A program made the translations under genes and the position numbers. The notes under the pieces were generated by a model, which was not told where the DNA came from, made no database searches, and saw only the letters and a program-made list of their open reading frames with translations. Shown in pieces: positions 7,912 to 24,885 of a stretch of DNA of 64,000 nucleotides (within the stretch, counting starts at the first letter, position 1; every line of letters starts with the position of its first letter). Source of the stretch: a bacterium (lineage in GTDB: Bacteria > Patescibacteriota > Minisyncoccia > Phycocordibacterales > CAIZLB01); assembly GCA_037127815.1 (NCBI GenBank), contig JBAXXP010000003.1, positions 24,096 through 88,095 on the forward strand, read 5' to 3'.

Positions 7912-9234
7912 CTAGTTAATTTTCTTACGCTTCTTGCCAGTCTCTTTCTCCCAACGATTCATAATTACTTCAGCATAGACATGAGATTTTTCCATGATAA
8001 AGCAACGTCGACCCATCTTCACAGATGCAATTAAAGTACTTCCGCTTCCTCCAAACGGTTCAAGAATTAAATCGTTTCTTTTCGTTAATACTTTAAGGTA
8101 TGGAATAAGTAGCTCTAGTGGTTTTGTGCCAAAGATAATTTCTTGCCCTGATGATTTTTTATCTGCGGCGGTATGAGATATGAAATCAGTTGGACATATC
8201 TTCTTTCCTTTTTCATATGGTTCAAAATGTGGTTTACCTGAAGTGGCAAAGATTGCATTCTCATATTCATTTTGAAACAATCCCTCCTCAGGCTCAAGAT
8301 TGAGATCTACTTCTCCTGAAGTTCCAACAAGTGCAATATCTGTCTTATTGAAAAACTTATTTGAAGCAGAAAAACCTTGCATACGATTAGGAACATGCCA
8401 AGTGATTGTGTTTCTATATTTCCAATGTACTTCGAGTGCATTCCAGATGGTTCTAAGGTTTTTTGGATTCTCAAAGATAATGATTGAGAAGTCAGGTTTT
8501 TGTACCTTTGCAACATTTGCCATCCAAAGATCCGAGAAATTATCAGGCAAGACATCAGTCTCTAAATATCTGCGATTCTTCTTTGATCCAAATCCAACTG
8601 TTGGACCATCCTTACCTCGACCTTTACCTTTTAAATAGTCTAAGATATATGGTGGATCAGTTAGCACCATATCTACCTTGTTATCTCCCATTAGTTTCAA
8701 CATATCGGCTTCTATTGTGGAATCGCCAATCATTAATCTAGAGTCTCCGAGTTCATAGATATCGCCCTTTTTTGCTTCAACTTTAATGTCGAGCTTATCG
8801 AGTTCTTTTTGTAAATCAAATTGCTCTTCATTTTTCTCGATTGGAAATATGTCATCAATGTCTTCTGAGGTAAAACCAACATCAAGAAGAATTGAGCTAT
8901 CAAACTCAGCGAGCATCTCAAGATCAAATTCTCCTTGATTGCGATTAAGTCTGAGGTTAAGTTCAAGCTCTTTTTCAAGAGGTAAATTCACAAATACTAC
9001 TGGCATATTTTTATATCCAAGTTCCTTGCATACATCAACCCTAAAATGACCTCCAACAATTATCATCTTTCTATCTTCGTGATTATTTACAATAATCGGA
9101 TCAACATTACCGAAACGTCTAATACTTTCCTTGAGCTGTTCTTTTTGCTCCTTACTCCACTTGCGTGGATTTTTATCATTTACCTTCAACTCGTCGATTG
9201 AGACGTACTCAATCTTTAAACTTTCTTTATTCAT
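7912..9234 (-). CDS. ParB-like nuclease domain fused to an N6A/N4C DNA methyltransferase (beta class); phage-type orphan methyltransferase
   Basis: The N-terminus has a ParB-N motif (KNPRKWSKEQ...GGHFR). The methyltransferase motifs are DPPY (IV) then FGGSGST (I), in beta-class order. This fusion is frequent in phage genomes next to terminase genes. Confidence 0.8.
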   Translation of the reverse strand: MNKESLKIEYVSIDELKVNDKNPRKWSKEQKEQLKESIRRFGNVDPIIVNNHEDRKMIIVGGHFRVDVCKELGYKNMPVVFVNLPLEKELELNLRLNRNQGEFDLEMLAEFDSSILLDVGFTSEDIDDIFPIEKNEEQFDLQKELDKLDIKVEAKKGDIYELGDSRLMIGDSTIEADMLKLMGDNKVDMVLTDPPYILDYLKGKGRGKDGPTVGFGSKKNRRYLETDVLPDNFSDLWMANVAKVQKPDFSIIIFENPKNLRTIWNALEVHWKYRNTITWHVPNRMQGFSASNKFFNKTDIALVGTSGEVDLNLEPEEGLFQNEYENAIFATSGKPHFEPYEKGKKICPTDFISHTAADKKSSGQEIIFGTKPLELLIPYLKVLTKRNDLILEPFGGSGSTLIASVKMGRRCFIMEKSHVYAEVIMNRWEKETGKKRKKIN

Positions 9235-9644: not shown

Positions 9645-10061
9645 CTATTTTTTAAATAGTATAGATTCCTGACTTTTAAACTCAGATTCACGCCCAACAA
9701 TGGGATTGCCATTTACATCAGCACTGTAGCTGACAATCTCTTTGTTTGTATATAAATCATAAATATATTGAGTAACTATATTTGAACCAATATAGCCACC
9801 TTTGTATAAACATTGGTTTGTTTCCTTGTTGAATCTATACTCGGAATTCATTATTCCGTCTCTTAATTCTTTTTTATCTTTTTCGAATCTTTCAGATCCA
9901 ATTTGCTCACATTTCTGAATATTAGCGATTTCTTCTTTTCTTGTTTGTTCAGTAGTTTCTCTTTTATCCTGTCTTGGTAAATACCAAATAAAATAGTATC
10001 CAACGGAAAGCGAGATAACTATCAGAGCAGTATTAACTGCTTTTTGTAATTCATTATTCAT
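9645..10061 (-). CDS. Hypothetical small membrane-anchored protein
   Basis: 138 aa with an N-terminal TM segment (ALIVISLSVGYYFIWYL). Confidence 0.4.
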   Translation of the reverse strand: MNNELQKAVNTALIVISLSVGYYFIWYLPRQDKRETTEQTRKEEIANIQKCEQIGSERFEKDKKELRDGIMNSEYRFNKETNQCLYKGGYIGSNIVTQYIYDLYTNKEIVSYSADVNGNPIVGRESEFKSQESILFKK

Positions 10062-10065
10062 AAGC

Positions 10066-10235
10066 CACTGTAGCGGTTTTAGCCTATTAATTTAATAATA
10101 GGCGAAGAGAATTGAGTCGTTAGACAGAAGACTCCTCGCCATTGCGACAGAGCTTGCGCCCTGCCCATATCTAGTTTCCCAGACATGACCGCTACAGTGA
10201 CTCTGACGAGGAGTCTTCCATACTGTAGCGGTTTT
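10066..10235. repeat. Interleaved repeat element: A(cactgtagcggtttt) - hairpin - B(gaagactcctcg) - A'(accgctacagtg) - B'(cgaggagtcttc) - A(actgtagcggtttt)
   Basis: Read directly from the sequence. The 12-bp motif occurs direct at 10066, inverted at 10188 and direct at 10222. An independent 12-bp inverted pair lies at 10127 and 10207 and interleaves with the first set. A small perfect hairpin gcctatta/taataggc lies at 10082-10103. A'-A plus TTTT forms a terminator-like hairpin on the plus strand. Confidence 0.55.
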
Positions 10236-10371
10236 GATATTCCGACCATATCCTAGAGAATTAAGGGTTCTTTAGGGGTTAGGTCTTTGTTGTTAATGAA
10301 ATGATAGCAGAAAATTTGCTATCTGTCAGTAGCTTAGATATGAGGGTTTGCGAAGCAGAAGTTACCAACAG

Positions 10372-13396: not shown

Positions 13397-15169
13397 TTAA
13401 TTAATTTTTTCTGAAAGAAAATTAAAGATTTTCAAGAATTTATTTTTAGTTTCATTCGAAATTTCAAACTCCTTATTTTCAGCCAAAAGCATTTGAATCC
13501 CACTATTGAATTTTGATTTTTCATAAACTGTGGACTTTGGATCAAAATACTTAGTGATTCCAAGTTTTTCTGTTTTACTAAACAGTTCTTCACAAGAGCA
13601 CTTATCAAAAGAAATATCTATGTCACTTAAATCGAATATTCGATTATGAATATCGACACCAAACTCTTTTAAATATCTTTTCTTTTGTAACTTTCCTTCC
13701 TTATCTGCATCTAATAAACCAACGAAATTTCTACCCCATGATACATACAGAGCAATTGGTTGATCTAATTTACTTGCACCTGTTCCTGGATAAAAATTAA
13801 AATTCTGTAATTTTAAAATAACTTTGCAGATGTACTTAAGCGAATAATAATCATTTTTCCCTTCAGTTATAATTATTGGAGGCACCTCTTCTAATAGACC
13901 AGGTTGATATTCGAGCACATCCAGAATAGGCTGAAAATAAGCAGCGTCTGAAGGATTTTCTGCGACAAATTTTTTGTACTGTATTGCTTCAACATCAGTT
14001 TGTGAAGCATCAAAACTTACCTCATCATTATAATTTAACGCCTTATTTCGAACAATGTACGCTCCAGATAACCATTCTGGATTAATTAGATGATGACTAT
14101 GGGTCGTATAAATTAACTTTGATTTCTTTGTGATCTCACTAAATGTACTCAACAGATTCTTCTGAGCAGTTGAATGTAGATTTGAAGCTGGCTCATCCAA
14201 TAGAAAAAGTATTTCCCCAGAACTTGAAATTCTTTCTTTTCTAAACTCAGTAAAAAGAAGGAAAGTAAAAAACCACCTAAAACCAAGACTTCTTTCTGAT
14301 ATTGAGAAAGTATCTACACCTTCTTTAAGACGAAGTTCTAAATAACTCCTACCTTCTGGATCAATATCGGTTGAAACAATGATTTCCTTTTTCCCAATTT
14401 TTGAAAATTTACCCCAAGCTGAAAATACCACTTTTGAAATTTTAGCAGCCATCAAACTCTCGGTTTTTTCTAAAGCTTGCTTGTTTGCAGCAGTAGACTT
14501 ATTCTTTAAATTATTCAAAATTGTTTCTTCTACAGTAAATGTCCCATTGATTGTAGATAATACATCTTGAATAATGTTGTAATACTGCATCTCTGTAGAA
14601 GATACTGTATTAGGTTCGAGATATATCCTCTCTGGAAACTTCGCCAAGAAGTCTGGATAATATATTACTTCTGGTAAAAATTCTTCTTTTATATGTTTAT
14701 AAATTTGTTGCTTTTCATTTAATGGTAACTCGATAAATTTACCACCTTTTTTCTTTTGTCCTTCAATATCTAATCCGAATTTAATTTCAGTAGTAGTTGG
14801 AATAGCTCGATCAAAATTATAATATCGATAAATTTTTAAATTTTCAGGGAATTTGAAATCAACGTACTTTGTAATATTTGTATTTATATATTTTTTAATT
14901 TCTACAACATCATCTGATGAAAAATTTATTGTTGCTATTATTTCAGTGGCACCAGTAAAGCTTGCAGTATCAGATTTTGGTATGAGATTATGTCGTTGAT
15001 CCATGAGTGCTTCATTGGAAAGATTATAAATAGCCTCTAGAATAGTTGTCTTACCACTCTCGTTTAAACCAACTAAAGTAAAAATTTTTGAATCAACAGG
15101 AAAATTAACATTAAGATTTAGTTCTTTAATGCCCTTATATTTTTTTATTTTAAAATTTGAATAGTACAT
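13397..15169 (-). CDS. OLD-family / Gabija GajA-like ABC-type ATPase with C-terminal Toprim nuclease domain, embedded between hsdS and hsdR
   Basis: Walker A GLNESGKTT, ABC-type Walker B LLDEPASNLH and H-loop TTHSHH. C-terminal Toprim motifs IIITEGKNDY and LLDADKEG. Gaps of 5 bp and 4 bp to the flanking genes imply one operon. Confidence 0.75.
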   Translation of the reverse strand: MYYSNFKIKKYKGIKELNLNVNFPVDSKIFTLVGLNESGKTTILEAIYNLSNEALMDQRHNLIPKSDTASFTGATEIIATINFSSDDVVEIKKYINTNITKYVDFKFPENLKIYRYYNFDRAIPTTTEIKFGLDIEGQKKKGGKFIELPLNEKQQIYKHIKEEFLPEVIYYPDFLAKFPERIYLEPNTVSSTEMQYYNIIQDVLSTINGTFTVEETILNNLKNKSTAANKQALEKTESLMAAKISKVVFSAWGKFSKIGKKEIIVSTDIDPEGRSYLELRLKEGVDTFSISERSLGFRWFFTFLLFTEFRKERISSSGEILFLLDEPASNLHSTAQKNLLSTFSEITKKSKLIYTTHSHHLINPEWLSGAYIVRNKALNYNDEVSFDASQTDVEAIQYKKFVAENPSDAAYFQPILDVLEYQPGLLEEVPPIIITEGKNDYYSLKYICKVILKLQNFNFYPGTGASKLDQPIALYVSWGRNFVGLLDADKEGKLQKKRYLKEFGVDIHNRIFDLSDIDISFDKCSCEELFSKTEKLGITKYFDPKSTVYEKSKFNSGIQMLLAENKEFEISNETKNKFLKIFNFLSEKIN

Positions 15170-16315: not shown

Positions 16316-17152
16316 TTATTTTTTACAATTAGAACACAGGTTCATACCTGTTAACGAAATTGATGCTGAATTAAAATCATAAGGATATGTTTTCCCACAC
16401 TTGCTACAAATCTGATTTCCTAACACATAGTGATTATTATTTAATAAATCAGACTTACCAAGAGAGAAGGATGTACTGTCTCCTAAAGTTGTAGCACTAA
16501 ACAAAACAGATTCTCTTTCTTTTTTCATGTTTTTAATCTGTTTTTCTAGCTGTGCAATTTTTTTACCAAACCCCTCTTGCTCTACAGCTGTTGCTGATTG
16601 AGCTAATTTCATTTTTTGATCTAACAAATCCATAACAAATGCTCTGTATGTTTCATTAAACTTTTCTTGAACTTCTTTTTCACTCCTAAGCGTTGGATCT
16701 ATATCAATCCAGTCCTCATACCCAGAGTTAACATTTAATTCAATCACAGATAAATGACGATCAATCTCATTTAGTTGAGGTTTTACATCTCTTGTTGCTT
16801 TCTTACTAAAGGTCATCACCCAGCAACGTAAACTACCAATTTGTTTTTGTATCGACTGCAAATTACGTACAGCAGACTGACCTTTTTTTCGAAGTATATT
16901 TTCACCTGTAACTTTTGAATACTCATTTTGGAATATACCTCCGGCTATTCCACCAGTTATACTTCCGAATACAGCTAAAAGATTTGAAAATAATTCATTT
17001 GTTTTAAACCATATAGATAGACCGAGTGAGATGATGGTAACTACTATAAAAACAAGGAACCATGGATCAAAAATCATGTTTGCAAAACTATTCCATTTTT
17101 GTTTAAGTCTAGTCATATATTTAAAATCCAAGTTCTTTAAGATTATTTTCAA
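16316..17152 (-). CDS. Hypothetical membrane protein: 2 N-terminal TM helices, coiled-coil, C-terminal zinc ribbon; embedded between hsdM and hsdS
   Basis: TM segments FLVFIVVTIISLGLSIWF and LLAVFGSITGGIAGGIF. C-terminal CSKCGK...CSNCKK. It overlaps the hsdM end by 32 nt and lies 1 nt from the hsdS start. Confidence 0.5.
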   Translation of the reverse strand: MKIILKNLDFKYMTRLKQKWNSFANMIFDPWFLVFIVVTIISLGLSIWFKTNELFSNLLAVFGSITGGIAGGIFQNEYSKVTGENILRKKGQSAVRNLQSIQKQIGSLRCWVMTFSKKATRDVKPQLNEIDRHLSVIELNVNSGYEDWIDIDPTLRSEKEVQEKFNETYRAFVMDLLDQKMKLAQSATAVEQEGFGKKIAQLEKQIKNMKKERESVLFSATTLGDSTSFSLGKSDLLNNNHYVLGNQICSKCGKTYPYDFNSASISLTGMNLCSNCKK

Positions 17153-18914
17153 TTTGTTTCTCTAGCTCTCGACCATTAGCAAAAGCATCTCTCAGTTCCA
17201 CCGAAAGCTTTTGCATTTTTTCTTCAAATGAAATTCCATCATCTTCTACATCAGCAAGTCCAACATATCTTCCCGGAGTTAATACGTATCCATTCTTTTT
17301 TATTTCTTCCAAATTTGCTGATTTACAAAAACCAGAAATATCTTCATATTTTTCTACACCTGATTCTTCACGCCAAGCTTTAACAGTATCTGTTATTTTT
17401 TTAATATTTTTTTCATTAAAAACTACCTGCTTACGTGAAATCTGTTCAAACGTATCTCGAGCATCAATAAACAAAGTTTCTCCAGATCGTTTTCGAAAAC
17501 GGTCACCACCTTTGTTTTTTGATAGAAACCAGAGAGATACAGGAAGTGATACGTTGTAAAAAAGTTTTGATGGACAAGAAATTATTACATCAACCAAATC
17601 TGCTTCTATAAGTTTTTGACGAAGCTCTCCTTCTTTACCAGATACAGCTAATGCACCATTAGGCATAACAAATCCAGCTTGACCATTTGGAGCAAGGTGG
17701 TGAGTAAAGTGCTGTACCCAGAGGAAGTTTGCATTTCCACTTGGGGGTATCCCAAGAAAGATTCTTGGATCATTATCAGAAAGTTTTGAAGGATCCCATT
17801 CTGCATTAAACGGAGGATTTGCAATTAAAAAATCTGCCTGGAGATGAGGAAACATATCTTTGTAATAAGTATTTCCAAGTTCAATCTTTCCTGAGAGACC
17901 ACGAATAGCAAGATTCATTTTACATAAACGAAGTGTTGTTTGATTACTTTCTTGTCCACTGATAGAAAGTTTTGAAGGATCCATCTTGTGATCTCGTAGA
18001 TATTCACCCATAGATACAAACATGCCCCCACTACCACAAGCAAAGTCTGCTACACGAGCATTTTCATACGGCTCAAGTATTTCTGTAAGAAGCTTAACAA
18101 TTGATCTAGGGGTAAAAAATTCCCCTCCACGTTTTCCTTCAGATGAAGCAAACTGACCTAGGAAGTATTCATAGATACGACCAAGAATATCTTTCTCACG
18201 ATCAAAATCATGGTCAAAAGAAATTTGTGAAAAGATATTTACAAGTTCTCCAAGAACAGTATGGTCAAGGTTTACTTTGGTATATACACGAGGAAGAACA
18301 TTTTCAAGTTGAACTGGATTATCCTTTTCGATGAGTTCCATTGCAGTATCAAGAATTTTTCCAAGATCAGAACTCATTGTTTTTGTTTGCAAAAATTCCC
18401 AACGAGATTTTTCTGGCACATAGAAAACCCCTTCTGATGTATAGAAGTCTTTTGTTTCAAGAATCGCTTTTCGTGCTTCTTCAGTAGGAACATAAAAGTC
18501 TTCGTTTTTTGGATCTTTTGTCAGATCAGCAAGAACTTCTCTTCGTTTATAGAATGAATCAGATATATATTTCAAAAAGAGAAGACCGAGAACAATATTC
18601 TTGTACTCTGACACATCCACATTGCCTCGCAATTTATCTGCCGCCATCCAAAGTTCTTTTTCAAAACTAAGGTCGTGGTGATGATTCTTATCTAAAACCT
18701 TTTTAGTGACGCTTTTTTGCTGTTCACTAATACGGTTCTGTATATCTTCTGAAAGAGAAGACATTGGGATCAAATATGTTGGTTTAGAGGGGTCTCCTAT
18801 ATTTTCAGCCTTAATTTCACCTTTTTTGATCTTTTGGTGAATGGCTATACGACTAATACCCAACATCTTTGCGAGTTGTGTAGGAGTTACAAATTGTGTT
18901 TTATCGATTGACAT
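17121..18914 (-). CDS. hsdM: Type I RM methyltransferase subunit (HsdM) with an N-terminal HTH extension
   Basis: Catalytic NPPF motif (LIANPPFN) and AdoMet motif DFACGSGGMF. The first ~70 aa (LAKMLGISRIAIHQKIKKGEI) resemble a MerR/excisionase-type HTH that HsdM normally lacks. Confidence 0.9.
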   Translation of the reverse strand: MSIDKTQFVTPTQLAKMLGISRIAIHQKIKKGEIKAENIGDPSKPTYLIPMSSLSEDIQNRISEQQKSVTKKVLDKNHHHDLSFEKELWMAADKLRGNVDVSEYKNIVLGLLFLKYISDSFYKRREVLADLTKDPKNEDFYVPTEEARKAILETKDFYTSEGVFYVPEKSRWEFLQTKTMSSDLGKILDTAMELIEKDNPVQLENVLPRVYTKVNLDHTVLGELVNIFSQISFDHDFDREKDILGRIYEYFLGQFASSEGKRGGEFFTPRSIVKLLTEILEPYENARVADFACGSGGMFVSMGEYLRDHKMDPSKLSISGQESNQTTLRLCKMNLAIRGLSGKIELGNTYYKDMFPHLQADFLIANPPFNAEWDPSKLSDNDPRIFLGIPPSGNANFLWVQHFTHHLAPNGQAGFVMPNGALAVSGKEGELRQKLIEADLVDVIISCPSKLFYNVSLPVSLWFLSKNKGGDRFRKRSGETLFIDARDTFEQISRKQVVFNEKNIKKITDTVKAWREESGVEKYEDISGFCKSANLEEIKKNGYVLTPGRYVGLADVEDDGISFEEKMQKLSVELRDAFANGRELEKQIENNLKELGF

Positions 18915-19033: not shown

Positions 19034-20347
19034 ATGAAAATACAAAAACCGCTACAAGTGACTCCTGACGAGGTCGCACCAATTAAGTACTGTCTTTACG
19101 CACGTAAATCAACCGAGCAAGAGGATAAGCAAGCATTATCAATAGAATCGCAGGTTAAAGAGATGATAATTCTAGCCGAGCGAGAGGGGTTGGAAATAGT
19201 CGAAATTAAGCGAGAATCGCACTCCTCCAAGGAGGTTGGGCAAAGACCTGTGTATAACGAGCTTATCAATGAAATCAGACAAGGCAAGTTCAACGGAATT
19301 CTGACATGGGCACCTGACAGGCTAAGTAGAAACGCTGGAGACCTAGGATCAGTAGTTGATCTTATGGATCAGAAGCTTCTACATGAAATAAGGACTTATG
19401 GACAGAAGTTTACAAATAATCCAAATGAAAAGTTCTTACTGATGATTCTTGGTTCACAAGCAAAGCTTGAGAATGACAACAAGATGGTAAATGTGAAGCG
19501 AGGACTTAGAGCGAGGTGTGAGATGGGACTATGGCCGTCCGTTCCCCCAACTGGGTACCTAAGCCACTCTGATAGAAATAAAAAATGTGAAGTATTACCT
19601 GATGAACAGAGAGCTTGTGTGATTAAACAAATGTTTGAAAAAGTTGCATACGATGGATGGTCAGGTCGAAAACTTTTCAAGTGGTTAGAAGAAGATATAC
19701 GATTTAAGACAAAACATGGAAAAGCACTGACATTGAGTAATGTATACATAATTCTCAAAAGTACCTTCTACTATGGTGAGTTTGAATATCCAAAAGGAAG
19801 TGGACAATGGTATGTAGGAAAACATGAGCCAATCATAACCAAAGATTTATATAACCAAGTACAGGATAAGATAACAAATGATCACTTAACGAGAACCCAA
19901 GATAAAGAGTTTGCGTTTACTAAGATGATCACCTGTGGACTATGTGGATCAGGAATTACCGCTGATGAGAAATTCAAGAAACTCAAAGACGGAACAACAA
20001 ACAGATACGTATATTATGGATGTACAAAGTTTAAAGATAAGGATTGTCCGTGTGGATACATACGAGAAGAAGACCTAATCGAACAGTTGGCAAATATATT
20101 AGATACAGTTTCGTTAGATGAAATAGGTATGAAATATAAGATCAAAACTGAAATTGAGTCACACAACGAATTTCAAGAGTCAGTATTAGGAAAGGAGGTG
20201 AAAGAGAAAACAAAGATTAAAGATGTTGATATAAGAAACTATGCAAAGCATATTTTGCGGAAGAGACCACTGTACGAAAAGAGAGAACTACTAAGTCATT
20301 TAAGAAGTAAATTGGTACTAAACGAAAAACAAATTAAGATTAAATAA
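19034..20347 (+). CDS. Large serine recombinase (intact), paralog of the pseudogene at 2635..3972
   Basis: 437 aa. The resolvase catalytic domain has a YARKST...SIESQ serine motif. It is followed by a recombinase domain and a zinc ribbon (CGLCGS...YYGCTKFKDKDCPCGY). Confidence 0.85.
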   Translation: MKIQKPLQVTPDEVAPIKYCLYARKSTEQEDKQALSIESQVKEMIILAEREGLEIVEIKRESHSSKEVGQRPVYNELINEIRQGKFNGILTWAPDRLSRNAGDLGSVVDLMDQKLLHEIRTYGQKFTNNPNEKFLLMILGSQAKLENDNKMVNVKRGLRARCEMGLWPSVPPTGYLSHSDRNKKCEVLPDEQRACVIKQMFEKVAYDGWSGRKLFKWLEEDIRFKTKHGKALTLSNVYIILKSTFYYGEFEYPKGSGQWYVGKHEPIITKDLYNQVQDKITNDHLTRTQDKEFAFTKMITCGLCGSGITADEKFKKLKDGTTNRYVYYGCTKFKDKDCPCGYIREEDLIEQLANILDTVSLDEIGMKYKIKTEIESHNEFQESVLGKEVKEKTKIKDVDIRNYAKHILRKRPLYEKRELLSHLRSKLVLNEKQIKIK

Positions 20348-23300
20348 CCTCTGGAGTGATCGCATCAGAATTAATCTTTTCGGCATTTACTACTTCTGCA
20401 AGATAATCGTCTAAGACTTTGAAAACAGGTGCGAGATCCTCTCTATATGTTGCTGTGTAATTACCAACATACAACGTCTTTTCTTTTTCATTAAGATTCA
20501 TTGCCTTTATGGCGCTAGAATTTTTTTGCCAATATTCAGCTAATTTTTCCTTATGTAAAACCTTTGTAAATTCGTTAATGTGAGGAATATAATTCCGACC
20601 ATCTTCTCTTGCAGATGCAAATACACTTGCGAAATTTCTTAAAAGATAATCGATGAAATGCTCTACATTCTCGGGTGATGAAGGATTAAAGCACACGTCA
20701 AAGATGTAATCATTTATAGCATCAGCAATTTGATGACGGTCATCGTTTCCTGTTGGATCATAATATCCACAACCAACACCACTGCTTATTATTGAATTTC
20801 CAAGTTGATAAATAGTAAAGCCTGTTATTATACTCTTAAGTACAGCGACTTGTTTATCTAAATCACCTTGAGAAATCTTGCTATTAATGACTTGTGATTC
20901 TAGATAGTCTTTATACTGGCCTGCTAAATCTTTCAGTTCTAGATTTGATATTTCCTCAAAAATGTTTCGCTTAGTATCTATATACTGCTTTTTAAAAATA
21001 TCGAAGACTTTCTGTGATATTTCCCGCATTTCTTCCTTGGCAATCACTTGAGTATTTCCTTCAGTTGGTGCACCCTTATCAGAATGTTTTGATAATGCAC
21101 GACTCAAATCAAAAATATCTCCACCTCTGTCAGCACTGCAATACAAGCGAAACGCCATAAGATCGTAGAGTCCGAGAACACCTCTTGTCGGTAATGAAAG
21201 TTTTTCCAAAACACCACAGCCAGAGTGTTCTCCTTCTCCGAAAATCCATTCAGCAATTTCCTTTATGTTTTTTTCTGTATTCCCAGAATGTTTTCCTGAA
21301 TCATCACTCCATCCAGCATCATTCAATAGACGTATCAAGAATAGATCTGAGTCTTTTCTTAATCCTACACCAATATTCTCTATTTCAATATGCGAATAAT
21401 CAGGCAGATTATCAAGTAAATGGGTAATAAGTATATTACTAATATTTGGAGGTAAACTTCGAGCATTGTTTACTATAATTCGCCACAGCTTTGCACGAGT
21501 AAACTCACCTTTATCAAAGGCAAATTTCGGGTCAGCAAATGCATCTTCAATAGTTTTTGAACCTGAGGCTATCTCGTCTTTCCAGTTAGCGTAAAACCTA
21601 TGCTGTTCTGTATCTTCAGGTTTAGCAAATTCGACTATTAATCGCAAATACGCTTCCAAATTTCTTCCATTTGTCCATCCACCATTAAAACAGGCATATG
21701 AGGTTTTAATATCTTCTGATACACCATCTATACGAGCATACGTATCTCGGTGCGGAAACTCTGCATTTGTACCAAGTCTTACATTAACATCAAAAATCCT
21801 ATCAAGAAGAAATTTTTGACGACTCATGTCGGGAAAGTGTTTTATATATTCAGTGTAGTATGTTGAATTTTTATACTCTGATTCACTAAATGATCCTCTT
21901 CTCTGACTACTGTCCTCTATAGGATATCCATCTTCATGAGGTAGAACTAACGAAAAAAAACCTCGACTACCGTTTGTCTCGCTATCATAGATTTTTCTAA
22001 AAATATTTGGAAAGTGAATATAAATCAAAAGGAGGTGAATAAGATCTTGCTTATCAAAGTCAGTATTTTGAAAATCTGTACTTTCAAGTTCAAAAAGAAC
22101 CACCGTATTAATCAGTCTTTTAAGCTTTCTGACATCGCCAATAAATGGAAGATAGTTATGGTAGCCTGACGATTTATATATATCAAGTAAGCCACCTAAT
22201 GCCTGACGAACAAGAATAGGATCTACCAACTTAGTAGAAACAGCCTTATCAAGATTATCTGAAACATACTTAGCAAGATTTTCTTTATCAAGAAAAAGAC
22301 TAATTTTTATATTTACAAATTTTTCAAGAAACTCGCTTATCTTTTCAGCGTCAGGTGTCTCAGATTCAAGAATCCCTATATTTTCTGTATCATAACAAAG
22401 CACATAAGAAATATTTGGTAATACAAAGCTCTTTCTAATAACAAATAAAATATCCTTTATTTCAGAAAAAGTCATTCTATCTAAATCATCAACAATAATA
22501 ATAACTTTCTTTTTAAATCTTTTTAATACGGCATTTAAATCATCAAAAGCTTCGTCTGCGGTATAATCTACAGTCAATGTTGGTAAACTAAAACCAAAGA
22601 TTGAAAAACGATTAACCTCTCTAAGTAATCTAGCATATCTCGAAATCAAAGGTTTTATTTCTGGTACGAATGAATCTTTTTGAATTGAGTGTATTAATCC
22701 ATCAACAAAAACCTCCAATAAGTTTTTGCTCCCAGCATACCTCAAGGGGTTAAACTTAAAAATAACAGTTTTATTACTCTGATTTTCATCCCAATGTTCT
22801 TTACAAAAATTTATAAAAGAGGATTTACCAATACCCCAAGGAGCATCAACTCCAAAGACAAAACTTTCTGAGTTTCCATTATTGAAGACTCTTTCAGCAA
22901 ATTTATTAGCCTTATCAGCAAGATTGAGCAGATCATTTTTTCTTTCCTTAAGTTCATGATCTGAGAGAAAATTTGATTCAGTTTCTTTTTTCTTCCAAGA
23001 AATTGATCTGAAAATAACAAAAGCAGTAAGGATTACTGGAGCAAAAACTAAAATCAGTAATTGCTGAAATGAAAATGATATGACTAATTTTTTATACCAA
23101 TCATATAAAAATCCTCCCCATGCTACATCTATCCAAATACCGAAACAAAGAGCCGTTAAAACATCAAAACGATAGCTTCTATAAAATTTACACAGATCTT
23201 GAACAGTATCTCGTATCAACACATAAAACAATGTCGTAATAATACCCAATGACGCCCCCAAAATAATCCATCCTTCATGACCAAACTTCGATATTGCATT

Positions 23301-23531
23301 GTTTAATTGAAGAGAAAAAGCTTGTGAAAAATAGAAAACCTCAACAAATAAAATACCAAAAAATACTGTTTTTATAATGACAATAAGATTCGCCGTAATA
23401 AGCCCAGGATCAGAAAAATAGTCCTTAAATTTAGAATATTGTTGTTGGGTCCTTTTCAAAAGTGTAGTTTGCTTCATAACGGCAATTATACTGTTATTTT
23501 GAAAAAGTTCGAGCCCATGACTGGTGCTCAA
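20340..23531 (-). CDS. KAP-family P-loop NTPase with N-terminal multi-TM region
   Basis: 1063 aa with the KAP Walker A VDAPWGIGKSSF. Four to five hydrophobic helices precede the NTPase domain. Confidence 0.75.
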   Translation of the reverse strand: MSTSHGLELFQNNSIIAVMKQTTLLKRTQQQYSKFKDYFSDPGLITANLIVIIKTVFFGILFVEVFYFSQAFSLQLNNAISKFGHEGWIILGASLGIITTLFYVLIRDTVQDLCKFYRSYRFDVLTALCFGIWIDVAWGGFLYDWYKKLVISFSFQQLLILVFAPVILTAFVIFRSISWKKKETESNFLSDHELKERKNDLLNLADKANKFAERVFNNGNSESFVFGVDAPWGIGKSSFINFCKEHWDENQSNKTVIFKFNPLRYAGSKNLLEVFVDGLIHSIQKDSFVPEIKPLISRYARLLREVNRFSIFGFSLPTLTVDYTADEAFDDLNAVLKRFKKKVIIIVDDLDRMTFSEIKDILFVIRKSFVLPNISYVLCYDTENIGILESETPDAEKISEFLEKFVNIKISLFLDKENLAKYVSDNLDKAVSTKLVDPILVRQALGGLLDIYKSSGYHNYLPFIGDVRKLKRLINTVVLFELESTDFQNTDFDKQDLIHLLLIYIHFPNIFRKIYDSETNGSRGFFSLVLPHEDGYPIEDSSQRRGSFSESEYKNSTYYTEYIKHFPDMSRQKFLLDRIFDVNVRLGTNAEFPHRDTYARIDGVSEDIKTSYACFNGGWTNGRNLEAYLRLIVEFAKPEDTEQHRFYANWKDEIASGSKTIEDAFADPKFAFDKGEFTRAKLWRIIVNNARSLPPNISNILITHLLDNLPDYSHIEIENIGVGLRKDSDLFLIRLLNDAGWSDDSGKHSGNTEKNIKEIAEWIFGEGEHSGCGVLEKLSLPTRGVLGLYDLMAFRLYCSADRGGDIFDLSRALSKHSDKGAPTEGNTQVIAKEEMREISQKVFDIFKKQYIDTKRNIFEEISNLELKDLAGQYKDYLESQVINSKISQGDLDKQVAVLKSIITGFTIYQLGNSIISSGVGCGYYDPTGNDDRHQIADAINDYIFDVCFNPSSPENVEHFIDYLLRNFASVFASAREDGRNYIPHINEFTKVLHKEKLAEYWQKNSSAIKAMNLNEKEKTLYVGNYTATYREDLAPVFKVLDDYLAEVVNAEKINSDAITPEVI

Positions 23532-23585
23532 AAATATTCTTCCTAAACGACCATTTTAGGTGTTTAGGTAGGTCTCACTAAACTG

Positions 23586-23656
23586 CTGGGAGACTAGGAA
23601 TCGAACCTAGATTAAAAGCTTCAAAGGCTTCTGTCCTACCTTTAGACGATCTCCCA
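23586..23656 (-). tRNA. tRNA-Gln (anticodon UUG)
   Basis: Manual fold of the minus-strand sequence TGGGAGA TC GTCT AAAGGTA GGAC A GAAGC CTTTGAA GCTTT TAAT CTAGG TTCGATT CCTAG TCTCCCA G. It has a 7-bp acceptor with the U1:A72 typical of bacterial tRNA-Gln, a G73 discriminator and a GGTTCGATTCC T-arm. CCA is not encoded. Its 3' end points toward the KAP/recombinase island. Confidence 0.8.
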
Positions 23657-24480: not shown

Positions 24481-24885
24481 TTAGATTAAAAAAGAAAGGA
24501 GTTTTGCCTTCACCCTTTCAAAATCACTTATATTCATATCCTCTATTTTCCTTATAAATCTTTTAAGACTGACTGAACGAGTCTGCGCCATATTCACTGC
24601 ATTTGGTATGCTTTTTCCATTTAAAAAATATACAAAATTTTTGTCGTCTTTCATCTTACTCGTAGTTGGCGCAACTAATGCTCCATATTTATTAAAAATC
24701 TTAATAACAACAACAGGTCTTTCAAAACCATGATTTTTACCACTTACTTCAACTCCAATATTTTGACCTAGGTTTACCCACCATATTTCTCTTGCTTTTG
24801 GATATAAAAATCTTTCAGATTTATGTATTCTTATTTTCAGATTATTCCACTTATTAAAAATTTCCGATATTTCATCATTATTCAT
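24481..24885 (-). CDS. MazF/PemK-family endoribonuclease toxin-like protein, no adjacent antitoxin gene
   Basis: Region REIWWVNLG...GFERPVVVI...VAPTTSK...KAKLLSFL aligns motif-for-motif with E. coli MazF (GDLIWVDFD...RPAVVL...CVPCTTQSK...IKAKINVLI). It has a 30-aa N-terminal extension. The 96-bp upstream gap holds no ORF. Confidence 0.65.
   Translation of the reverse strand: MNNDEISEIFNKWNNLKIRIHKSERFLYPKAREIWWVNLGQNIGVEVSGKNHGFERPVVVIKIFNKYGALVAPTTSKMKDDKNFVYFLNGKSIPNAVNMAQTRSVSLKRFIRKIEDMNISDFERVKAKLLSFLI

Follow-up and report, generated by a model that had tools for sequence, protein, structure and literature searches.

Restriction-modification (RM) systems, the commonest form of defence in prokaryotes, are viewed as residing wholly in the cytoplasm. 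Some abortive-infection genes are known to lie within hsd operons, among them PrrC and RloC, which are thought to back up restriction when a phage disables it. Here we describe X, our working name for the product of a 266-aa open reading frame (ORF) between hsdM and hsdS in a 64,000-nt stretch of contig JBAXXP010000003.1 from a member of the Patescibacteriota (hereafter the window; coordinates are positions within it, L numbers denote homologue loci or contigs, and P numbers denote family proteins). Like PrrC, RloC and the rlo genes, X is an accessory gene embedded in a type I hsd operon, with which it is presumably co-transcribed. However, PrrC and RloC are cytoplasmic ABC-type ATPase/anticodon nucleases encoded in the hsdS-hsdR slot, whereas X is a membrane protein without an ATPase or nuclease domain and occupies the hsdM-hsdS slot, the PrrC-like slot of the window being filled by an OLD-like gene. 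Unlike PrrC and RloC, X also occurs in type II, type IIB/IIG-like and type III-like operons.

Effectors that combine an N-terminal transmembrane (TM) region with a C-terminal sensor are known in CBASS, Pycsar and type III CRISPR systems (Cam1). X resembles CBASS 2TM/Cap15-type effectors, PycTM, Cam1 and lambda RexB in having an N-terminal TM part and a C-terminal cytoplasmic domain; such TM effectors of abortive infection are co-expressed constitutively with their defence system, and membrane integrity is their presumed output. The likeness is architectural only: X shares no sequence or fold similarity with them and, unlike them, has no cyclic-nucleotide-binding, SAVED or CARF domain and no signal synthase in its operon. 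With Zorya ZorAB and Kiwa KwaA, X has in common a membrane part, long cytoplasmic helices and genetic coupling to nucleases or helicases that attack DNA, but it lacks a MotAB-like stator or KwaA-like four-TM fold, is much smaller and gave no match to the PADLOC Zorya and Kiwa models. Proteins of the YrzE/DUF3792/TIGR04086 type share with the X family a TM hairpin rich in glycine and small residues, but they lack the helical domain of ~150 residues and the zinc ribbon, and the window protein falls below significance against them.

A literature search for membrane genes embedded between hsdM and hsdS found a single figure legend, that of Extended Data Fig. 4 in Rodriguez del Rio et al. (Nature, 2023; PMC10849945), where a novel TM family of Patescibacteria is placed beside hsdM, hsdS and a recombinase. 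In that paper, this FESNov family is discussed only as possibly involved in "DNA degradation and incorporation" and is assigned no function, and no domain analysis, distribution across RM types or further mechanism is given for it (PMC10849945). Matched by description only, with every stated point agreeing, it is probably the X family. Accessory and abortive-infection genes embedded in hsd operons (PrrC, RloC, rlo) are of an already known kind; what is added here is a revised gene model, the size of the family, its architecture and motifs, the association with four RM types in a fixed slot after the methyltransferase (MTase) gene, the decoupling of X from OLD, and the discordant divergence of X and the methyltransferase M. 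X is probably an undescribed membrane accessory of RM defence systems, mostly in ultra-small groundwater bacteria.

X is encoded directly after the methyltransferase gene of RM operons

In the window, X is the second of five same-strand genes, hsdM, X, hsdS, an OLD/AriA-like gene and hsdR (Table 1). The maximal ORF spans 16316..17152, and a length of 278 aa, as given in the original prediction for this locus, is obtained only if its first TTG (17152) is taken as the start. All 23 aligned homologues instead begin M-[KT]-x-L-[KR]-x-[KS]-W in register with an ATG at 17116, the closest of them (P0001, 93% identical to X) starting at MTRLKQKW. Because every aligned homologue begins there, the alignment places the true start at this ATG and sets the protein at 266 aa. 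The 32-nt overlap with hsdM that had been described is therefore an artefact of the TTG start, and X actually begins 4 nt past the hsdM stop codon (17123-17121). At the other end, its stop lies 1 nt from the hsdS ATG (16314), just as first described. An obvious Shine-Dalgarno sequence was seen in none of the five cluster genes, so a missing ribosome-binding site is no argument against translation of X; the gene spacing fits termination-reinitiation coupling. A scan for promoters and terminators returned fewer promoter-like sites than were found in shuffles.

HsdM, HsdS (two Methylase_S target-recognition domains) and HsdR (HSDR_N, SF2 helicase and C-terminal domain) are co-encoded on one strand and are recognised as type I RM components by both Pfam and PADLOC. 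The OLD-like protein matches Pfam AAA_15/AAA_21 and the PADLOC models AriA, ATPase-Toprim_I-B, Old and GajA. It also matches the MADS model mad3 (4e-12), HsdM matches mad2 and HsdS matches mad5, all of these matches being weaker than those to type I RM models. Since a canonical hsdR is present, we read the locus as a type I RM system with an embedded OLD/AriA-like gene and not as MADS.

After removal of duplicate contigs, about 32 distinct loci with an X homologue were informative, and in 18 of them the homologue lies inside an RM operon, which may be of type I, of a type IIB/IIG-like or type III-like organisation, or built around a type II or orphan MTase (Table 1). At 14 of the 18, the MTase and X genes either overlap slightly (by no more than 4 nt) or are separated by at most 6 nt. 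X is an RM-operon accessory gene that directly follows the methyltransferase gene, is nearly always translationally coupled to it and is made together with M and S. The RM-embedded copies fall on several deep branches of a neighbour-joining tree, their identity to X ranging between 93% and 25%. Another seven loci belong to defence or mobile islands of other kinds. At L002, a MazF and Panacea-antitoxin pair precedes the MTase-X pair.

The original prediction was that X may act together with the RM complex or with the OLD-like nuclease, and it proposed co-occurrence with hsd and OLD-like genes as a check. The RM half of this idea is strongly suggested by context, hsd or other RM genes being present at the 18 loci above, whereas the OLD-like gene adjoins X only in the window. 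A tblastn search with the window OLD-like protein gave no match in L001-L027, and the genes listed for L028-L043 include neither AAA_15 nor AAA_21. We therefore rejected a partnership of X with OLD or PARIS (AriA-AriB). The hsdS-hsdR slot as such is variable and elsewhere holds a Fic gene with a gene for a 276-aa protein (L032), Shedu SduA (L039), or genes for unrelated, uncharacterised proteins of 287-444 aa (L006, L013, L030, L035). By analogy, it behaves like the cargo slot of PrrC-type loci; the slot of X is a different one and far more constant. A conserved partner of ~280 aa beside X (L028, L030, L032, L013, L010) was also considered and discarded, as these genes are mutually dissimilar.

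X and M do not diverge in step. Among the window, L006 and L030 operons, the HsdM proteins are 83-85% identical and the X proteins 65-69%; among L013, L035 and L039, the corresponding values are 73-78% and 36-41%. These figures suggest either that X is exchanged between similar operons or that its evolution is much quicker than that of M. This discordance and the unrelated folds of the MTases that precede X argue against one conserved X-M interface and favour an autonomous module that gains from being expressed with M.

Architecture and family of X

The original prediction described two N-terminal TM helices, a central coiled-coil region and a C-terminal CxxC...CxxC ribbon, and proposed structure modelling as a check. 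All three elements are borne out (Table 1). Both TM helices are seen in Kyte-Doolittle profiles and in the AlphaFold2 (AF2) model, the central region is a long helical stretch in AF2 with coiled-coil-type matches to SMC, EzrA, JetC and LmuB, and the four cysteines are present. The model, built on a 148-sequence alignment, has a predicted local distance difference test score (pLDDT) of 88.9 and a predicted TM-score (pTM) of 0.60, compared with a pLDDT of only 59 in an earlier run on 24 sequences. While modelling thus confirmed the layout, it revealed no fold relative: Foldseek searches of PDB and BFVD yielded no match at E<0.3, the top matches, to helices of CorA, MsbA and bMERB, not being significant.

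Residue conservation was counted over the 148 aligned members. In the N-terminal helix, W8 (141/148) and F11 (126/148) are near-invariant, as is P18 ahead of the first TM helix (146/148). The second TM helix carries a glycine zipper, which in the window protein reads GSITGGIAGG (G51xxxG55xxxG59); the pattern [GAS]xxx[GAS]xxx[GAS] is found in 137 of the 148 members and G59 in 138. Zippers of glycine or small residues typically drive homo-oligomeric packing in channels. According to the AF2 model, TM2 is part of a single unbroken helix, residues 41-106, that extends it into a cytoplasmic stalk. Family motifs in the helical domain are [KR]-G-x-S-A-x-R-x-L (78-86), E117 and W-x-D-x-x-P (136-141), and the near-invariant residues of the family comprise W8, P18, G59, [KR]78, G79, A82, R84, L86, E117, W136, D138 and P141. 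If the helices of the modelled bundle pack antiparallel, the motifs at 78-86 and 136-141 would both be membrane-proximal.

A linker that varies in length and sequence leads to the C-terminal ribbon, which has the features of a zinc ribbon, with two CxxC knuckles 15-25 residues apart and a short beta-ribbon (AF2 places short strands at 235-244). The four cysteines are invariant in the close homologues of the 23-homologue alignment; over the wider family, the full motif is retained in 122/148 members and the single cysteines in 122-124/148. The Pfam family Zn_ribbon_8 (PF09723) is matched by 8 of the 148 members, the window protein itself falling below threshold. The N-terminal stretch (net charge of ~+3) and the RKK that follows TM2 are basic, and the four-residue loop KTNE between the TM helices is neutral. 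By the positive-inside rule, this charge distribution and the hydropathy suggest that both termini lie in the cytoplasm (N-in/C-in), in agreement with a zinc ribbon on the cytoplasmic side. The 266-aa X is a genuine protein of the inner membrane.

A word-indexed search returned 26 full-length relatives with 37-93% identity, and a second one with a wide alignment contributed hardly anything new. An exhaustive profile search went much further, with 537 representative clusters (50% identity) at E<=1e-3, including 343 at E<=1e-10; nearly all of the 537 clusters are 260-310 aa long and match end to end. In the members of one cluster, P0087 and P0175-P0177 (479 or 453 aa), an addition of ~224 residues without a Pfam match stands before the X architecture. 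The original prediction was to be given up if the ORF proved not to be conserved in related hsd operons or not to be translated. The ORF is conserved in such operons and is under strong purifying selection (dN/dS about 0.1): comparison of X with its L007 counterpart gives a pN of 0.115, a pS of 0.674 and a dN/dS of ~0.07, and comparison with that of L030 a dN/dS of ~0.13. In the L007 copy (L007:2735-3531, 82% identical), a frameshift near codon 219 breaks the reading frame in two, which reflects either a pseudogene or an assembly error.

Matches in genomes come from metagenome-assembled genomes of Saccharibacteria, Gribaldobacteria, the Parcubacteria group and Omnitrophota, with one member from Ignavibacteriota, and those in metagenomes chiefly from groundwater and sediment. 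No relatives were detected in plasmid or phage collections (tblastn) or in a scan of IMG/VR, so X is not evidently phage- or plasmid-borne. The family is concentrated in Patescibacteria, a group that depends for its biology on taking up DNA and has a largely uncharacterised membrane proteome. The window, itself from this group, fits it in GC content (35%) and in its closest homologues.

As first stated, X belongs to no recognised family: no significant match was obtained for X alone in Pfam, NCBIfam or PADLOC (PADLOC-DB v2), PHROG matches were all at E>=0.003, and a sequence-profile search of PDB gave only chance matches to zinc fingers or coiled coils at E>=0.007. When the 148 members were scanned singly against Pfam, NCBIfam and PADLOC, only Zn_ribbon_8 matches, Gly-rich-TM matches and coiled-coil noise appeared, the last from the models SMC, Rad50, ASRP, LmuB, JetC, EzrA and XaxA (LmuB and JetC at E>=7e-7), and the Gly-rich-TM matches to DUF3792/TIGR04086 in 4-5 of the 148 members (DUF3792: 5). 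The family is thus unannotated, with no entry in Pfam, NCBIfam, PADLOC, PHROG or PDB that matches it. In their source databases, members are named only "hypothetical protein", "archaellum component FlaC" or "YrzE family protein", and the last two names are evidently by-products of the coiled coil and of the Gly-rich TM region. The motifs and architecture given here provide a family definition that annotation pipelines and defence-finder tools do not have.

Two specific identities were rejected. The pairs R84-N85 and R120-H121 had suggested the HEPN superfamily, but the R-x(4-6)-H motif is missing: no histidine lies within 4-6 residues after R84 (RNLQSIQKQ), R120 and H121 are adjacent, and these two residues are retained in only 54 and 57 of the 148 members. 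Neither a Pfam HEPN match nor a HEPN structure among the Foldseek matches was found. Membership of the PrrC/RloC group is likewise excluded, as X has no P-loop or ATPase domain in Pfam, NCBIfam or PADLOC and its SMC and Rad50 matches are coiled-coil noise.

Table 1. Features of the window and genomic settings of X homologues
Feature	Position or loci	Strand	Remarks
Gene X (membrane/helical-bundle/zinc-ribbon protein, 266 aa)	16316..17116	-	ATG 17116, stop codon 16318-16316
Spurious 12-codon N-terminal extension (TTG 17152)	17117..17152	-	Overlaps hsdM 3' end; absent from all homologues
X, amphipathic, positively charged N-terminal helix, residues 2-15	17072..17113	-	AF2
X, TM helix 1, residues 18-38	17003..17065	-	Kyte-Doolittle peak 2.4; AF2 helix 18-36
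X, TM helix 2, residues 42-63	16928..16993	-	Kyte-Doolittle; glycine zipper
X, cytoplasmic all-helical domain, residues 64-209	16490..16927	-	AF2 helices to 106, 112-139, 142-173, 177-209
X, variable linker, residues 210-231, predicted disordered	16424..16489	-	pLDDT <50; length and sequence vary in alignment
X, C-terminal zinc ribbon, residues 235-266	16319..16414	-	C237, C240, C261, C264
hsdM, 597 aa (N-terminal HTH_17 + HsdM_N + N6_Mtase)	17121..18914	-	Pfam; PADLOC MTase_I 2.6e-156
hsdS, 379 aa	15175..16314	-	Pfam Methylase_S; PADLOC Specificity_I
OLD/AriA-like ABC-type ATPase, 590 aa, C-terminal Toprim-like region	13397..15169	-	Variable hsdS-hsdR slot
hsdR, 1006 aa	10372..13392	-	Pfam HSDR_N, SWI2_SNF2, T1RH-like_C; PADLOC REase_I 5e-250
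Large serine recombinase (Resolvase/Recombinase/Zn_ribbon_recom)	19034..20347	+	Pfam; divergent from hsdM
KAP-family P-loop NTPase, 1063 aa, N-terminal hydrophobic region	20340..23531	-	Best PADLOC match PifA, 1.7e-27
tRNA-Gln	23585-23656		Beyond recombinase and KAP NTPase
MazF/PemK-like toxin gene	24481-24885	-	Just past tRNA-Gln
LOOT RNA (Rfam RF03000)	10146-10285	-	51.9 bits (gathering score 46.4), E 7e-7
138-aa ORF	9645-10061		
ParB_N+N6_N4_Mtase fusion	7912-9234	-	Downstream of hsdR; also L030:15602-16813
D12-class MTase fusion, 665 aa	486-2483	-	
Type I, hsdM-X-hsdS-...-hsdR	Window, L006, L007, L013, L030, L032, L035, L039		
Type I, X-hsdS at contig edge or with extra ORFs between hsdM and X	L005, L009, L010/L011		
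Type IIB/IIG-like, fused HSDR_N_2+N6_Mtase(+Eco57I), then X, then Methylase_S protein	L003/L015, L014, L016		L016 at contig edge, only C-terminal N6_Mtase/Eco57I fragment of fused protein visible
Type III-like, N6_N4_Mtase (664 aa)-X-ResIII helicase-TnsA-like nuclease	L041		
Type II or orphan MTase, N6_N4 MTase-X	L004		
Type II or orphan MTase, EcoRI-like MTase-X-GmrSD/HNH	L002		Beside MazF/Panacea toxin-antitoxin pair
Type II or orphan MTase, Eco57I-type MTase-Tsp45I-X	L012		
Other island, SDH-protease/AbiTii	L024		
Other island, integrase-Rep-DpnI-Shedu-Fic	L028		
Other island, HTH-ImmA/MazG/SLFN-helicase	L038		
Other island, PIN	L040		
Other island, SNase/NACHT/CHAT	L042		
Other island, integrase/EEP nuclease/UvrD	L033		
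Other island, Fic-like neighbourhood	L023		

Candidate roles of X

We tentatively favour, with a probability of roughly 0.4, the reading that X is an RM-linked, oligomerising membrane sensor-effector that acts by abortive infection or exclusion. An interfacial amphipathic helix would be followed by a TM hairpin whose TM2 zipper would bring about homo-oligomerisation of X, and TM2 would run directly into the cytoplasmic helical domain, followed by the flexible linker and the zinc ribbon. The helical domain and the tethered ribbon would keep the oligomer closed until it is released by a phage cue, which could be failed or inhibited restriction or else an invading nucleic acid or protein. Once open, the TM assembly would have one of two effects, an ion leak that gives abortive infection or a barrier to DNA entry that gives exclusion. 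X would in this way be a self-contained sensor-effector that forms a second defence layer on top of RM and is independent of the OLD-like gene, itself one of many interchangeable hsdS-hsdR cargo genes. The discordant divergence of X and M fits such a swapped or fast-evolving, phage-facing module rather than an obligate structural subunit.

Several points weigh against this reading. Homology lends no support to pore formation, to toxicity or to a ligand, the cytoplasmic domain lacks both a fold relative in PDB or BFVD (Foldseek) and a recognisable sensor domain, and no signal-generating enzyme is encoded nearby. The fixed slot after M, beside unrelated MTase folds, is not obviously needed by an autonomous effector and might reflect a direct role in RM function. 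In addition, about 7 loci are of a housekeeping kind, with Ddl (L001), Lnt (L020, L025, L027), TSCPD (L021) or YchF (L043) as neighbours. On the three Lnt contigs, which are from sediment, a member of a distant X subfamily (24-27% identity) is followed by Lnt and a beta-propeller protein (L020:362-3231, L025:663-3122, L027:2-2171); this subfamily may be a housekeeping branch, or the arrangement may be synteny among related genomes.

A direct role in RM could be that of a membrane tether or fourth RM subunit, with X anchoring the RM complex, or incoming DNA through the zinc ribbon, at the inner membrane. Foreign DNA would then be inspected at entry, whether it arrives by phage injection or by type IV pilus/competence uptake in episymbiotic bacteria of the Candidate Phyla Radiation (CPR). 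E. coli type I enzymes have been reported to be membrane-associated, the position directly after M and the translational coupling imply that X is co-produced with M and S, and a zinc ribbon on a flexible leash, as modelled, would be plausible as a DNA- or protein-binding module. Other neighbours of X are also nucleases (SNase, Exo_endo_phos, GmrSD-HNH, Tsp45I), and the FESNov catalogue places a Patescibacteria TM family of hsdM/hsdS context together with comEA/comEC and pil contexts under "DNA degradation and incorporation" (PMC10849945). We nevertheless regard an anchoring role as doubtful, because the partner MTases come from unrelated families (HsdM-type N6_Mtase, N6_N4_Mtase, EcoRI methylase), which makes a single interface unlikely, because X and M do not co-diverge (in the more divergent operons above, M at 73-78% and X at 36-41%), and because X is also found without any RM gene nearby.

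The housekeeping neighbours (Ddl, Lnt, YchF, TSCPD) would be expected if X were a general membrane protein, for example one of envelope or stress function, that hitchhikes in RM operons and islands as recombination hot spots of small CPR genomes. Some distant members are also like the Gly-rich YrzE/DUF3792 proteins, 5/148 matching DUF3792 and one carrying the NCBI name "YrzE family protein". Such hitchhiking is unlikely, however, given that X occupies one and the same slot in the RM-embedded 18 of the about 32 loci, which span four RM types and X identities between 93% and 25%, and that 7 more lie in other defence or mobile islands; for a random gene, adjacency to an MTase by chance would be expected at only a few percent.

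The RM types that carry X might themselves hold a clue. For types I, IIB/IIG and III, S-adenosylmethionine (SAM) is either required for restriction or stimulates it, and this link shared by the type I, IIB/IIG-like and III-like operons with X would, speculatively, fit a guard against anti-restriction. It is improbable that X is a dedicated membrane subunit or guard common to the SAM-dependent RM types I, IIB/IIG and III in ultra-small episymbionts. As a docking subunit, X would hold restriction complexes where DNA enters the cell, and one machinery would then serve both to defend the cell and to supply it with nucleotides; as a guard, it would sense the state of RM (for instance, inhibition by DNA mimics or loss of SAM to phage SAM lyases) and collapse the membrane potential once restriction is disabled. 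In either form, a new protein family would link RM physically to the membrane.

Least credible is that X is a controller-like RM regulator, a membrane-sequestered zinc-ribbon factor that delays or restrains restriction with respect to methylation, for instance once a serine-recombinase element has moved to a new host: the ribbon, the position between the M and S/R genes, the repeated linkage of the cassette to a large serine recombinase and the N-terminal helix-turn-helix (HTH) of HsdM, which hints at unusual regulation, speak for it, but X itself lacks an HTH and any other known regulator fold that binds DNA, the membrane anchor with its conserved glycine zipper is left unexplained, X occurs outside RM operons, and the ribbon is less conserved and missing in ~17% of members.

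Whether as effector, guard or tether, X would be a new RM accessory layer within the M-S or M-R translational chain, and it offers a small, cloneable candidate for asking whether RM operons have built-in membrane outputs.

Surroundings of the RM cassette

A large serine recombinase is encoded divergently from hsdM, and the order recombinase-hsdM-X recurs in L007 (recombinase at 1-882) and L030 (4788-6065). A large serine recombinase is also found near the type III-like X operon of L041 (47-1564). The RM and X genes may thus be cargo of a serine-recombinase integrative element. Next to the recombinase, the KAP-family NTPase is likely to be a second membrane-associated defence gene in the same island. 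Beyond these two genes lies a tRNA-Gln, just past which a MazF/PemK-like toxin gene is found. Residues 9-56 of HsdM match HTH_17 (excisionase/MerR-like), and the HsdM of L035 (596-2275) has a MerR N-terminus; these X-associated type I methyltransferases thus carry an unusual DNA-binding extension.

At the edge of the cassette, between the hsdR stop (10372) and the 138-aa ORF, we detected a match to the LOOT RNA, an orphan structured RNA without an assigned function. Farther downstream of hsdR, a ParB_N+N6_N4_Mtase fusion, seen also in L030, and then a D12-class MTase fusion make the island rich in orphan-looking methyltransferases. The remainder of the window is chromosomal and includes rpoC, Dus, MsrAB, a clamp-loader subunit (DNA_pol3_delta2 match) and AddA.

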